IMG/VR virus record: IMGVR_UViG_3300033145_001546
Span: 13,256 to 77,255 of that record
DNA: 64,000 nt
DNA from: a virus
Reading direction: 5' to 3' (one strand)
The notes under the pieces were generated by a model. It had not been told where the DNA came from and did not search any database. It was given only the letters and a program-made list of their open reading frames with translations. Within the stretch, counting starts at the first letter, position 1. Each line of letters begins with the position of its first letter. The translations under genes were made by a program, and so were the position numbers. This document shows, piece by piece, positions 7,799 to 11,543 of the stretch.

Positions 7799-8580
7799 AA
7801 TCCTATATCTCCTATATAACACCTAAAAACCAATAAACCTTATGCAAATGCAAACACCCGAAAAATTATTTTTTTTAATAAACCACCAAGTCTTTTCCCA
7901 AAATTTTCTCTATATATAACGAGTGGCCATAGATGCATATTAAAAACTTTATATTCTGCATAAGTACCTAAGTCTTTTTTCGACTTCTCTATTCGATTCT
8001 ATTATAGTACATGCACGTCCGAATTATTCGTTTTTCGGACCGTATATCGACTTTCCCCGAATTTCCGACCCTTCATCATCCTTTCTACCCCTATAGTCTC
8101 TTTTCCCTATTCTTACCTATCTTAAGTCCGATATACTCCGATTCCTTTTTTCCTTTTCCTTTTTCTTCTCTACCCGATTTTCTACTTACCTATCCCCCGG
8201 TTTTTTTTCCTACTTCTTCTATCCTATAAGTTTGCATGTCTTTCGGGTATCCTTACCTAAAATAAACTCATGCATGCCTTACTCTTATATCCTTTTATCG
8301 ACTTTCGATTCTTACCGTCTCCCTTCGATTCTAATAGACTTTTTCGTTTATCCATGGTATAGTATCGGTCGGGCTCCGTTCGTCGATTCTCGTCGAAATC
8401 GCCTTTTCTCGGACGGTATAATCTACCCGGTCTTTTCGTCTTCGTCCGGGAATTCTCGTACTATAGCTTTATAAGCTTTCGGGTCGTATAGAAAAAAGCT
8501 ATTTTCTTAAAGATTTTTCGGCCTTTTCGATACCGTAAAGGACGATTTTCGTTTTTTATCATTTTTCTTAAAGATTTTAC

Positions 8581-8608
8581 TTTACTCGGACGATTAAAGT
8601 AGTATAAT
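8581..8608 (+). promoter_or_regulatory. Sigma70-like early promoter
   Basis: TTTACT-16 bp-TATAAT with AT-rich upstream sequence; AGTATAATCTATA shared with the promoter at 15813. Confidence 0.6.
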
Positions 8609-8614
8609 CTATAT

Positions 8615-9065
8615 AGTCCGGGGGGTTTCCCGGACGGCTCTTTAATACGCGAATATCGGCTTTAAGGTTTTTCGGGTTTCCCGGACGGTAGGATTTTCGG
8701 TCCGGTCCGGGAATTCGGAAAATCTAAAAGGGTCTTTTTACCGTATCCGGGAAACCGATTTTTTCTTTCCGTTTACGACCGATAAGCTTTTATAACTAAC
8801 CTCCGTTTTTCTTTTTAGGATTCTCGAAAAGGGTCCGGGACGTTTTCCGGACGGTCTATCCGAAAAGCGGAAAATAAGAAAAGGCGAATAACGGATAGTC
8901 GAAAGACGTCCGGAATTCCGAAAACGAAACGCCGATTTTATATCGGGGAAAAAACGGAATTCCGAACTATCGCGAAGACGAAGTAAGTCGCCGAAGAATA
9001 TTCGACCGGCCCGGAAAGATATACGGTCCGGGGAAGGTTTTCGATAACCTCCGGTCGATTCTTAT
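8615..9065 (+). ncRNA. Putative highly structured leader or ncRNA
   Basis: No start codon on either strand. Multiple stems, e.g. GTCCGGG/CCCGGAC 8616-8635 and a long G-U-rich stem at about 8661-8729. Confidence 0.4.
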
Positions 9066-9113
9066 TAGTAATAGAAAATCGAAAACTTTACTTTAAGCGA
9101 AAGGGAAAGAAAA

Positions 9114-9377
9114 ATGAAAACGAAAACGAAAATCGAAAACTATTTAGACGCTCTAAATTCTCTCGGTTTCGGAACGCCGTCTTCCGACGACGATTCCGGG
9201 ACGATAATATTAGACTCCGGCGATATTATCGAATTATCGAAATTCGAGCGGGGCGGGAAGGTTTCGACCGAAGACCGAAAAGTCTCTTTTTATTTTTCCG
9301 GCGTCTCGGATCTTATCGAAATTCTCTCCGGCGGAAAAGTCGTATATACGACCGCCGGAGAGACCGACGAGTTTTAA
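9114..9377 (+). CDS. Early cassette protein 1 (acidic; no C/W/H/Q or internal M)
   Basis: Strong GAAAGGGAAAGA RBS; TAA followed by hairpin. Confidence 0.8.
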   Translation: MKTKTKIENYLDALNSLGFGTPSSDDDSGTIILDSGDIIELSKFERGGKVSTEDRKVSFYFSGVSDLIEILSGGKVVYTTAGETDEF

Positions 9378-9429
9378 GAGTCTATAAAATACGGTCCGAG
9401 AGAATCCGGACCGGTTTTTATACGCTTTT
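9376..9429 (+). repeat. Intergenic hairpin, variant copy
   Basis: AAGAGTCTATAAAATACGGTCCG-loop-CGGACCGGTTTTTATACGCTTTT. Confidence 0.8.
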
Positions 9430-9471
9430 AAGAAAATCGAAAACTTTACTTTAAGCGAAAGGGAAAGAAAA

Positions 9472-9708
9472 ATGAAAACCGAAAAAACGGAAAAACGAGT
9501 AGAGTCGATTCTCGGAAAGGAAGCTTCGATTCTTTTCGATTCGGAATTCGAGAGGATGGGGATTTTCCAGGTAGAGAATTCCGATTCGGAAAACGAAAAG
9601 TTACTTTCGGAATTTCTCTCGGCGGTCGGAAAAACGGTTTCGGAAATCGACCGGGAAATTCTAAAAGGAATTATAAAAGAAGAATTAACCTATATAAACT
9701 CCTTCTAA
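9472..9708 (+). CDS. Early cassette protein 2 (acidic)
   Basis: Same RBS block as cassette 1. Confidence 0.8.
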   Translation: MKTEKTEKRVESILGKEASILFDSEFERMGIFQVENSDSENEKLLSEFLSAVGKTVSEIDREILKGIIKEELTYINSF

Positions 9709-9724
9709 TTCTCCTTTTCGAGTA

Positions 9725-10016
9725 AAAAGCCTATAGACTACCGGACCCGAAAAGGGTCCGGGTCTCTATACGCTTTTAGAGTAACTCTATACGCTTTTCG
9801 AGTAACTCTATACGCTTTTCGAGTAACTCTATACGCTTTTCGAGTAAAAAGACGAATCGATTAAAGACGAATCGATTAAAGACGAATCGATTAAAGACGA
9901 ATCGATTAAAGACGAATCGATTAAAGACGAATCGATTAAAGACGAATCGATTAAAGACGAAAGACGAATCGATTAAAGACGAATCGATTAAAGACGAATC
10001 GATTAAAGACGAATCG
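9725..10016 (+). repeat. Hairpin + 4x 21-bp repeat + about 11x 15-bp repeat
   Basis: Hairpin 9725-9777; CTCTATACGCTTTTCGAGTAA x4 (9764-9847); AAAGACGAATCGATT x10 plus 2 partial (9848-10016). Confidence 0.95.
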
Positions 10017-10038
10017 TATATTTTAGAAAGGGAAAGAA

Positions 10039-10287
10039 ATGAGTAAAAGAAAAAGCGTAGACGAGAAAATCGGGAATTTACTTCTTTCGGAAATATCGAA
10101 AGTCGATTTACTTTTTTCGATGTATACCGAATATTCCGAAAAACCGGAGATGGAAAAGCGAATAATCGAAGCGATAGTAATATATAATTCGCTTCGGGAA
10201 AGAAATCTTATCCCGGAAAATTCGGACGTAGAAGACTATAAATCGGCTTTCCCGAATATAAAAATGATTCCCCTAATGGAGGTATAA
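10039..10287 (+). CDS. Early cassette protein 3
   Basis: GAAAGGGAAAGA RBS; no C/W/H/Q. Confidence 0.8.
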   Translation: MSKRKSVDEKIGNLLLSEISKVDLLFSMYTEYSEKPEMEKRIIEAIVIYNSLRERNLIPENSDVEDYKSAFPNIKMIPLMEV

Positions 10288-10406
10288 AAAGCCTATAGAC
10301 TACCGGACCTTCTCCGGGTCCGGGTCTCTATACGCTTTTAAGACGAACCGAATTAAAGACGAACCGATTAAAGAATAATTGAAACTATTTTAGAAAGGGA
10401 AAGAAG
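10287..10406 (+). repeat. Hairpin + 2x 15-mer + RBS block (type B spacer)
   Basis: Near-identical to 11200-11318. Confidence 0.9.
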
Positions 10407-10607
10407 ATGGAAAACGAAAAAGCGAAAAAATTTGGAGTAAAATGCTATCGACATGCTTCCTCAATTTTCGGAGAGGCGACCCGCTGGGCGAAAAAAGCCG
10501 ATGGAAACCGTATCGAATTCGATACGGTAGAAGAAGCGGAAAGATACGCCGAAAAAAGAAATAACAAAGGAATCTTAAATTGCGAGTATTTCTTTAGCCG
10601 AATCTAA
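10407..10607 (+). CDS. Early cassette protein 4
   Basis: Conserved RBS; FDTVEEAERYA motif typical of small phage proteins. Confidence 0.75.
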   Translation: MENEKAKKFGVKCYRHASSIFGEATRWAKKADGNRIEFDTVEEAERYAEKRNNKGILNCEYFFSRI

Positions 10608-10621
10608 GCCACCGAAGTATA

Positions 10622-10852
10622 AAAAGCCTATAGACTACCGGACCTTCTCCGGGTCCGGGTCTCTATACGCTTTTCGAGTAACTCTATACGCTTTTCGAGT
10701 AACTCTATACGCTTTTCGAGTAACTCTATACGCTTTTCGAGTAACTCTATACGCTTTTCGAGTAAGAAGACGAACCGATTAAAGACGAACCGATTAAAGA
10801 CGAACCGATTAAAGACGAACCGATTAAAGACGAACCGATTAAAGACGAACCG
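10622..10852 (+). repeat. Hairpin + 5x 21-bp repeat + 5.8x 15-bp repeat
   Basis: Hairpin 10622-10674; 21-mer 10661-10765; AAAGACGAACCGATT 10766-10852. Confidence 0.95.
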
Positions 10853-10875
10853 TATATTTTAGAAAGGGAAAGAAG

Positions 10876-11196
10876 ATGAAAACGAAAGAGTTTATGAAAT
10901 TAGTCGAAAAGGCGATGAAGAAAATCGAATCGGAAAACGTCGAAGAACTAATCGAAAAAGCCGAAGATTATTGGGAATCCGGTATAGCTATTCGATTTTC
11001 GCCGATGGATGAAGAAAATGAGACGGAAATCGACGGAGTATATTCCGAAGAGAAAATTGAATTCGAGCGGCTCCGATGGTTGGCTGCTGCTTGGGCTTCC
11101 GTACTTAAAACCCGAAAACTCTTAGAAGGTCATCCATCGGCGAAATTAGACGAAATCGAAAACGACTTAAAAGGAGACTTAATAGACGTTCTTTAG
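10876..11196 (+). CDS. Early cassette protein 5 (acidic, possible DNA mimic)
   Basis: Conserved RBS; about a quarter of residues are D/E. Confidence 0.75.
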   Translation: MKTKEFMKLVEKAMKKIESENVEELIEKAEDYWESGIAIRFSPMDEENETEIDGVYSEEKIEFERLRWLAAAWASVLKTRKLLEGHPSAKLDEIENDLKGDLIDVL

Positions 11197-11199
11197 AAT

Positions 11200-11318
11200 A
11201 AGAGCCTATAGACTACCGGACCCGAAAAAGGTCCGGGTCTCTATACGCTTTTAAGACGAACCGATTAAAGACGAACCGATTAAAGAATAATTGAAACTAT
11301 TTTAGAAAGGGAAAGAAG
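11200..11318 (+). repeat. Hairpin + 2x 15-mer + RBS block (type B spacer)
   Basis: Copy of 10287-10406. Confidence 0.9.
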
Positions 11319-11543
11319 ATGAAAGCACCGAAAAGTAGAATCATCAAAGAGGCAGCCGAAAAAGCCGGCATCCCGGTCGTGGTCGCAAAATTATCAGAGC
11401 ACGTTCACCGAGTATTTCGCCCCAAAAGAGAATTGGGTCGATGCACCTTTTGCGGGTCTACAGTTGTGATAATAAATGAAGAGTGGACTTGCCTGATGTG
11501 CCGCACTTCAGGGGATAAACCGAAAAGAGCACGCCGAATATAA
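11319..11543 (+). CDS. Small zinc-ribbon protein
   Basis: CTFC...CLMC; conserved RBS. Confidence 0.7.
   Translation: MKAPKSRIIKEAAEKAGIPVVVAKLSEHVHRVFRPKRELGRCTFCGSTVVIINEEWTCLMCRTSGDKPKRARRI

Follow-up and report, generated by a model that had tools for sequence, protein, structure and literature searches.

A zone purged of the dinucleotide CA/TG beside the terminase genes of an uncultured phage, and its possible meaning as an island free of DNA modification

The CA/TG-purged zone

The phage described in this work is represented by the IMG/VR virus record IMGVR_UViG_3300033145_001546 (77,255 bp, rated as complete by CheckV). The window is the stretch of 64,000 nucleotides corresponding to bases 13256-77255 of the record, and positions refer to it unless another phage is named. 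Genes encoding the large and small subunits of the terminase (TerL and TerS) are separated by a divergent non-coding region from a set of small rightward genes, which open an arm hosting replication and DNA-metabolism genes (Table 1). A zone encompassing most of the non-coding region and the first five small open reading frames (ORFs) has been almost completely purged of the dinucleotide CA and of its complement TG.

In the core of the zone (8360-10379) only 2 CA are found (8560, 9568) where base composition predicts 122, and 8 TG (9115, 9473, 9557, 10040, 10121, 10151, 10265, 10277) where it predicts 119, that is, 10 dinucleotides against ~241. The initial annotation had given the same counts, which were exactly reproduced, with an expectation of ~250. 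All 8 TG are part of in-frame ATG codons, 3 of which are starts and 5 internal. In sliding windows the odds ratio rho(CA+TG) is ~1.0 at 7501-8000, drops to 0.02-0.05 between 8500 and 10250, rises to 0.14-0.26 at 10000-11250, and is 0.9 again by 11251-11750. Depletion sets in at ~7960, is near-absolute until 10380, stays ~5-fold until 11320 and then ends, in agreement with the limits originally drawn by eye (~7960, relaxing after ~10400, gone by ~11330). The zone is unique in the genome. Elsewhere in the record rho(CA+TG) is at least 0.88 in every 1-kb window, and the 12 longest gaps free of CA/TG are all inside the zone. The proposal that the purge spans non-coding DNA, repeats and genes holds as well, also once repeats are masked: one CA only is found in the 753 bp of non-coding DNA at 8360-9113, tandem arrays and ORF1-3 are purged, and the core with arrays masked keeps 10 CA/TG over 1725 bp, where the background frequency is 0.134 (binomial P = 6e-91).

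CG is enriched in the core, as first noticed (202 against 82 expected, rho 2.45). Enrichment is in part a by-product of the ban, because C cannot precede A, and G cannot follow T; the depletion of GC in the zone (0.5) is similarly an expected by-product. A matching CG and GC pattern is found in the zone of another phage, which bans AG/CT (see below). Selection for CpG itself was considered and rejected, since depletion is confined to CA/TG, the transition partners of CG, and does not affect CC, CT, AG and GG. General avoidance of palindromes was rejected too, as GAATTC (8 sites), TCGA (61) and CCGG (37) are abundant in the zone. What the zone lacks is a dinucleotide, not a defined restriction recognition sequence occurring elsewhere in the genome. 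No Rfam family or tRNA was found within it.

Table 1. Features of the purged zone, of the flanking terminase genes and of the candidate modification gene cluster (window positions)
Feature	Position	Strand	Remarks
Terminase large subunit, TerL	5602..7080	-	reads leftwards
Terminase small subunit, TerS	7067..7822	-	normal CA/TG content
Divergent non-coding region, TerS to first small gene	7823..9113	.	~1.3 kb
CA/TG-purged zone	7960..11320	.	core 8360-10379 near-absolute; 10400-11320 relaxed; ~3.4 kb
ORF1, small, acidic, 87 aa	9114..9377	+	without His, Gln, Cys, Trp; sole TG is the start codon
Terminator-like hairpin 3' of ORF1	9392..9413	+	similar hairpins after the other ORFs
ORF2, 78 aa	9472..9708	+	sole CA is one Gln codon; sole TG are 2 Met codons
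Tandem arrays upstream of ORF3	9764..10016	+	21-bp unit x4 (CTCTATACGCTTTTCGAGTAA), then 15-bp unit x12 (AAGACGAATCGATTA)
Conserved element ending in GAAAGGGAAAG, 3-5 nt 5' of ATG	e.g. 10021..10038	+	13 copies, from 9099 to 17971
ORF3, 82 aa	10039..10287	+	5/5 TG are Met codons
Short 15-bp arrays	10340-10374 and 11253-11286		
ORF4, 66 aa	10407..10607	+	relaxed part of the zone
Both array types again, upstream of ORF5	10661..10852	+	21 bp x5, 15 bp x5.7
ORF5, 106 aa	10876..11196	+	relaxed part of the zone
Radical SAM enzyme 1, PA0069/Rv2578c family	23091..24251	+	profile match
Pyridoxal phosphate (PLP)-dependent enzyme, phage M6 gp52 homologue	24248..25111	+	33% identity over 99% of length, E 2e-46; phrog_7093, E 3e-46
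Radical SAM enzyme 2, PA0069/Rv2578c family	25108..27586	+	intein-interrupted; two overlapping ORFs in different frames
GNAT/LPG_synthase_C-like protein, candidate aminoacyl transferase	28906..29739	+	structure-based neighbours
PAPS-reductase-family protein	29736..30614	+	absent from 11/11 compared relatives (all without the PLP gene)

Genes and control elements of the zone

The ban extends to the proteins encoded in the zone. All the CA/TG left in ORF1-3 are obligate (8 Met and 1 Gln codons). The three products, 247 residues in all, contain no His, Cys or Trp, and His, Gln, Cys and Trp together amount to 1 residue, compared with ~7% in neighbouring genes. Codons ending in T are used, except before G. 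Arg is not enriched in ORF1-3, hence codons for the four residues have not simply mutated to CGN. The CA/TG ban is selective, not mutational. A mutational cause could be the conversion of CA/TG into CG by local hypermutation or by biased repair, or else a recent transfer from a donor with such a signature. It would agree with the facts that transitions connect CA/TG with CG, and that CG is enriched beyond what is expected of a simple by-product. Yet 8 out of 8 retained TG are in Met codons and Arg is not raised, and codon analysis excludes hypermutation on these grounds. Moreover, zones of other phages ban AG/CT, not linked to CG by transitions, and regulatory elements and hairpins are common to the zone and to the normal DNA downstream. 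An origin of this kind is largely refuted by the codon analysis, and very improbable. The zone and the DNA downstream have the GAAAGGGAAAG element and the hairpin in common, and an assembly chimera was also rejected.

The zone proteins are small acidic orphans. None of the ORFs has a match in Pfam or PHROGs, and no homologue of ORF3 was found among 5.8 billion proteins. ORF4 and ORF5 jointly retain 9 avoidable TG and 3 avoidable CA on the coding strand (p=0.012). In these relaxed ORFs coding-strand CA, and thus template-strand TG, is avoided more, which fits the notion that a modified T hinders reading of the template. The same bias, seen on the mRNA strand, could also mean that early mRNAs escape an endoribonuclease cutting at CA or UG. 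However, the core lacks both CA and TG on one strand, meaning that the step is missing from both DNA strands, and the ban includes intergenic arrays and DNA lying upstream of 7980, where the first promoter-like site is. An RNA-level cause is hardly credible.

The non-coding region upstream of ORF1 carries a TTTCCCGGACGG-like motif six times and, on the + strand, four putative promoters of the sigma-70 type (7980-8008, 8335-8363, 8393-8422 and 8581-8608), which are consensus matches only. The CA/TG remaining in the region are mostly within CATG/GCATGC motifs (8011, 8233, 8271, 8354). Every small gene of the zone has its own terminator-like hairpin; those located 3' of ORFs other than ORF1 are of the CCGGACC...GGTCCGG type (~9741-9762, 10303-10323, 10638-10658, 11217-11236). 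The sequence flanking the GAAAGGGAAAG element on the 5' side is TTAG or AAGC in the 6 copies residing in the zone, T(T)TTG in the 7 copies outside. The flank loses TG only within the zone, hence TG is avoided even in a conserved element. The TAnnTTTG-like sequence found before GAAAGGGAAAG outside the zone resembles the -7 promoter box of Bacteroidota, and a member of this group may be the host of the phage. A search of IMG/VR with the regulatory motif of the zone found nothing.

The 15-bp units upstream of ORF3 (9848-10016) include ATCGAT in 10 copies, though this hexamer is avoided elsewhere (4 vs 19); the arrays downstream (10767-10852) read ACCGAT in its place. Just downstream of the zone lie genes encoding a MoxR-like AAA ATPase and a DUF2201 VWA/metallopeptidase partner (13130-15337), and a phage-encoded sigma-70 region-2 protein (16096-16629).

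Palindromes are spared outside the zone if they contain CA/TG

If CA/TG are modified, restriction sites containing these dinucleotides need no avoidance. The 64 six-bp palindromes were counted in each genome, and the observed/expected (O/E) ratio of the 16 containing CA/TG was compared with that of the 48 lacking it. Outside the zone the O/E is 0.95 for the former, each of which is near expectation, and 0.59 for the latter. Among the palindromes without CA/TG, 13 of the 31 testable ones have an O/E <0.35, and 8 are absent (TTTAAA, ATTAAT, TTCGAA, CCCGGG, AACGTT, GTCGAC, TACGTA, CTCGAG). The contrast is significant (Fisher p=0.0015, Mann-Whitney U test (MWU) p=0.0008), and no other dinucleotide class shows a similar sparing in this genome. 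Avoidance may be extreme, as for CTAG (0 vs 143 expected), TTTAAA (0 vs 31), ATTAAT (0 vs 21) and GATC (79 vs 285). The genome carries throughout the signature of a phage in which CA/TG-containing sites need no avoidance, and DNA modification is its plausible cause. The ratio of the two O/E values (with/without CA/TG) is 1.60 in this phage, 2.25 in phage M6 and 1.31 in phage F8, two positive controls with known hypermodification of T, 1.19-1.68 in five IMG/VR metagenomic phages carrying a PLP gene of the type discussed below, and 0.78-1.41 in 11 relatives lacking it. Phages with and without the PLP gene differ (MWU p=0.0004), also when the phage described here and M6 are left out (p=0.003). 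The test works on M6 and F8, and is applicable to any complete phage genome.

Palindromes bear on two alternative views. According to the first, something else makes the zone unmodifiable, and the ban is restriction avoidance of the ordinary kind, which here has come to include all the CA/TG sites that modification protects elsewhere. The zone indeed shares with the rest of the genome the lack of CTAG, TTTAAA, ATTAAT, TTCGAA, CCCGGG and other words. Yet avoidance of this sort removes particular words (only 13 of 31 among the palindromes without CA/TG), and would not purge a whole dinucleotide, amino-acid usage and non-palindromic contexts. Nor is there an evident mechanism by which a modifier would be excluded from 3.4 kb, and the hypothesis is quite unlikely.

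According to the second view, contemplated in the initial annotation, the CA/TG step, or a variety of short motifs that include it, is read by a host defence if the incoming DNA is unmodified, and the DNA exposed first has been purged accordingly. The importance of motif avoidance in the leading region is documented in Autographiviridae, where it decides the sensitivity to Type I restriction (PMC12455610). Many anti-restriction proteins are small and acidic, as are the orphans encoded in the zone, and palindromes avoided genome-wide are absent from the zone, too. However, no specific support for the hypothesis emerged, and phages that avoid ordinary restriction lose individual sites rather than an entire dinucleotide. 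In the rest of the genome palindromes with CA/TG are as frequent as expected and not dangerous, which again calls for protection by modification. No defence system with dinucleotide specificity is known to us. A host defence of this type retains a small, though not negligible, likelihood.

A candidate modification gene cluster

A modification of CA/TG may be carried out by the products of a gene cluster located at 23.1-30.6 kb (Table 1). Both radical SAM enzymes match NCBIfam PA0069/Rv2578c families with scores below the family cut-offs. These families correspond, presumably, to a group of enzymes resembling spore photoproduct lyase (SPL), though no match of the two proteins to SPL or COG1533, and no sequence match in PDB, was found. 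In the second enzyme an intein bearing a DUF559-type endonuclease is inserted exactly at the CX3CX2C motif. The second ORF starts with its own ATG, followed by a C-terminal splicing block, and the arrangement is suggestive of either a frameshift or a split, trans-splicing intein. In relatives the gene is uninterrupted, and encodes 469-484 aa.

In phage M6 a PLP enzyme, gp52, proposed to be a decarboxylase, and an SPL-like radical SAM enzyme, gp53, finish the hypermodification of thymidine to 5-NedU (PMC8989533). The PLP enzyme of the cluster is homologous to gp52 along almost its whole length; the direct match of a radical SAM enzyme to gp53 is weak (E 0.013). Among cultured phages 66 records were matched by the PLP enzyme, 52 of them from Pseudomonas phages, and M6, YuA, MP1412 and PAE1 are among those listed. 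The GNAT-like protein has GNAT + LPG_synthase_C proteins as structure-based neighbours (TM 0.74-0.76), and its Pfam match is below threshold. Out of 9 other phage records with the PLP gene, 9 also contain the gene for the GNAT-like protein.

Other components known from M6 were not found. The dUMP hydroxymethylase gp58, a thymidylate synthase homologue, gave no tblastn match in the whole genome, and neither a dUMP hydroxymethylase nor a TET/JBP protein was detected by Pfam matches among the ORFs scanned, mainly of the + strand. M6 gp54, gp51 and gp55 (5-HMUDK, aGPT-Pplase) have no match in the genome, though distant homologues may escape detection. DpdA was not found either. As no homologue of the canonical route through 5-hydroxymethyldeoxyuridine (5-hmdU) was detected, the pathway would be new.

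Purged zones in related phages

TerL is at most 36% identical to its counterparts in named phages (Riemerella and Croceibacter phages), and 80-86% identical to those of the closest relatives (P0001-P0004). A single-protein TerL scan found nothing in IMG/VR, and only a 26% match in GTDB genomes. IMG/VR relatives with a TerL identity of 47-60% exhibit the same layout, made up of TerS, divergent small-gene cassettes and a conserved 287-aa gene, and their cassettes have a normal CA/TG content. Whole-record scans of the 11 relatives lacking the PLP gene, including closer ones with the same layout, revealed no CA/TG purge.

A weaker depletion occurs in a phage (G016; 73.8 kb with terminal repeats, TerL 48% identical) which has both the PLP and the GNAT-like genes, and an alike TerS/early-cassette layout. 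At a corresponding place (21,550-24,300 of G016, or L212 1550-4300) CA/TG is depleted 3-6-fold and CG is raised. The first early ORF contains no His, Gln, Cys or Trp. TerS is included in the stretch, with 0.115 avoidable CA/TG per codon compared with 0.37 in TerL, and repeated DNA is found between TerL and TerS. Similarly, a 7.5-kb IMG/VR fragment (L174, TerL 47% identical) begins inside a CA/TG-purged stretch (1-1150; rho 0.06-0.4, CG 2.2), which hosts a divergent 132-aa ORF lacking the same four residues. Two related IMG/VR fragments feature a 1-kb island free of a different dinucleotide (L087 250-1340, L088 200-1350), with 3 AG/CT against 71 expected. This island consists of one 140-aa gene and its flanks, which are rich in AGCT-containing repeats, and lies 0.5 kb upstream of a TerS-like gene; the palindrome test found little avoidance in the 11.6-kb L087 fragment, and is uninformative. 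Purged genes are unrelated between phages, and the purged ORFs of the phage described here and of G016 are not homologous to each other.

A CC/GG 'purge' noticed in another fragment (L156 10500-11350) was rejected, being a long imperfect tandem array of GAACATGACGTACATTTGTA-like units directly after TerL; in L042 CC/GG is weakly depleted only. A 500-bp window of G004 (46,801-47,300; L099) has 0 TA where 16 are expected, just upstream of a homologue of the gene for radical SAM enzyme 1.

The zones found, purged or depleted (this phage, G016, L174, L087/L088), all adjoin TerS/TerL. An unmodified stretch could thus be needed for packaging or replication, in that binding and cutting by the terminase, or by an initiator, would have to take place on native DNA beside the terminase genes. 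The presence of repeated motifs and iteron-like arrays in the non-coding part, and the extension of the depletion over TerS itself in G016, may be taken to favour such a role. In turn, the purge of five protein-coding genes at the cost of amino-acid content stays unexplained, and the location beside TerS is inherited synteny, since the cassettes residing there in relatives are unpurged. The hypothesis is unlikely. The initial annotation supposed that the zone would be injected first; the record of the phage described here is linear, without end repeats, and the weak P22-gp3-like match of TerS would suggest headful packaging with permuted ends.

Discussion

The data are best accounted for by assuming that the zone is a hard-wired island free of the phage's own CA/TG-context DNA modification, an explanation which is probable, though well short of secure. 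In the scenario proposed the phage would put a bulky base modification on its own DNA at CA/TG, the modified base being plausibly either thymine in 5'-TG, as in M6, ViI, phiW-14 and F8, or adenine in 5'-CA. The modification would likely be made by the enzymes encoded at 23.1-30.6 kb, namely the two radical SAM enzymes, the M6-gp52-like PLP enzyme and the GNAT/LPG-synthase-like transferase. Under selection, the control region and the first five small genes of the rightward arm would have lost all avoidable CA/TG on both strands, leaving a stretch that could not be modified. The ban would concern a whole dinucleotide because a dinucleotide-specific modifier is avoided; restriction avoidance would remove only some sites.

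As to why such an island is needed, the favoured reason is that incoming virion DNA would be fully modified, and the first genes must be read at once by an unaltered host RNA polymerase. Bulky groups in the major groove block bacterial RNA polymerase in vitro (PMC4838386). This block, the promoter-proximal element devoid of TG and the avoidance of TG on the template strand make early readability the reason preferred. A close second is escape from modification-dependent nucleases. As these enzymes act early (PMC12191111), the DNA coding for the first proteins, which probably serve anti-defence, should not attract them. The model put forward at the outset, in which a modified phage keeps the DNA read by the host polymerase unmodified, finds partial support in the palindrome signature, the homology to gp52, and the contrast between G016 and the 11 relatives lacking the PLP gene. 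The link between cluster and purge that it implied is not universal. G016 carries the PLP gene and a depleted zone, and relatives lacking the former lack the latter, but no purged zone is found in M6, in F8 and in four PLP-bearing metagenomic phages of other types.

The latter finding, along with other observations, weighs against the island hypothesis. Modification alone does not require a zone, and the purge needs something more. Three relatives keep both radical SAM enzymes and the GNAT-like gene, without the PLP gene and without a purge. In G016 the depletion covers TerS, a late gene, and this misfits a reason based purely on early transcription. The canonical 5-hmdU route (dUMP hydroxymethylase, 5-HMUDK, aGPT-Pplase) was not found, and the activity of the second radical SAM enzyme, split over two frames by the intein, is uncertain. 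Among 4-bp palindromes, CATG (0.71) and TGCA (0.59) are moderately scarce; each genome contributes 64 words to the palindrome test, and the phages under comparison are relatives, not independent samples. Lastly, the phage is uncultured, and known from its sequence alone.

Two-base specificity is an established property of phage DNA modifiers. T is hypermodified at TG or TC in M6, ViI and phiW-14 (PMC6449724), modification occurs at TG in the Pbunaviruses F8 and 14-1 (PMC12191111), and phage T-dioxygenases prefer NTG or NTC (PMC13229309). Similarly, the DpdA of phage iggy acts at GA (PMC10484667). The whole-dinucleotide ban requires modifiers with the two-base specificity of DpdA and the T-dioxygenases. 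The phage described here resembles these hypermodified phages in its presumed dinucleotide-context target, M6 and F8 in the sparing of CA/TG palindromes, and M6 in the gp52-type PLP enzyme. It differs in that dUMP hydroxymethylase, 5-HMUDK and aGPT-Pplase were not found, and GNAT/LPG-synthase-like and PAPS-reductase-like genes are present instead; M6 and F8, in turn, have no CA/TG-free island. Mom of phage Mu is a GNAT enzyme which modifies adenine in double-stranded DNA in a Gly-tRNA-dependent manner (PMC13219725). The cluster includes a GNAT-like protein with a possible relationship to aminoacyl-tRNA-dependent transferases, and A in CA as target would give an equal ban. Its neighbours in the cluster are, however, radical SAM and PLP enzymes, and no sequence match to Mom was seen, though none was looked for.

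Motif avoidance in first-entering DNA is a feature of the first-step-transfer DNA of T5 and of the early region of T7. The zone is also reminiscent of the leading region of Murciavirus (PMC12455610), being a bounded stretch which opens one gene arm, hosts small genes of unknown function and obeys a sequence ban absent elsewhere. In those phages the ban concerns one recognition site in the DNA entering first, whereas here a whole dinucleotide is banned from both strands, proteins included. Full-text literature searches retrieved no description of dinucleotide-purged islands.

More generally, it is conceivable, though here more caution is in order, that some phages combine a modified chromosome bulk with a genetically fixed unmodified island, obtained by banning the two-base target of the modifier from the first genes and their control DNA, and that the banned step reveals the motif from sequence alone. 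In the phage described here this would imply an undescribed radical-SAM/PLP/GNAT route of CA/TG hypermodification, without 5-hmdU. If the hypothesis is correct, the island may be viewed as the viral counterpart of an unmethylated CpG island, and a local dinucleotide ban would be a sequence-only reporter of phage DNA hypermodification and of its target motif, the detection of which normally requires virion DNA and mass spectrometry. It would also follow that modification comes at a price for the phage, in the expression of its own genes or in their safety, and one high enough to drive His, Gln, Cys and Trp out of proteins. The genes of the island would be those which the phage needs first, and thus good candidates for new anti-defence proteins.

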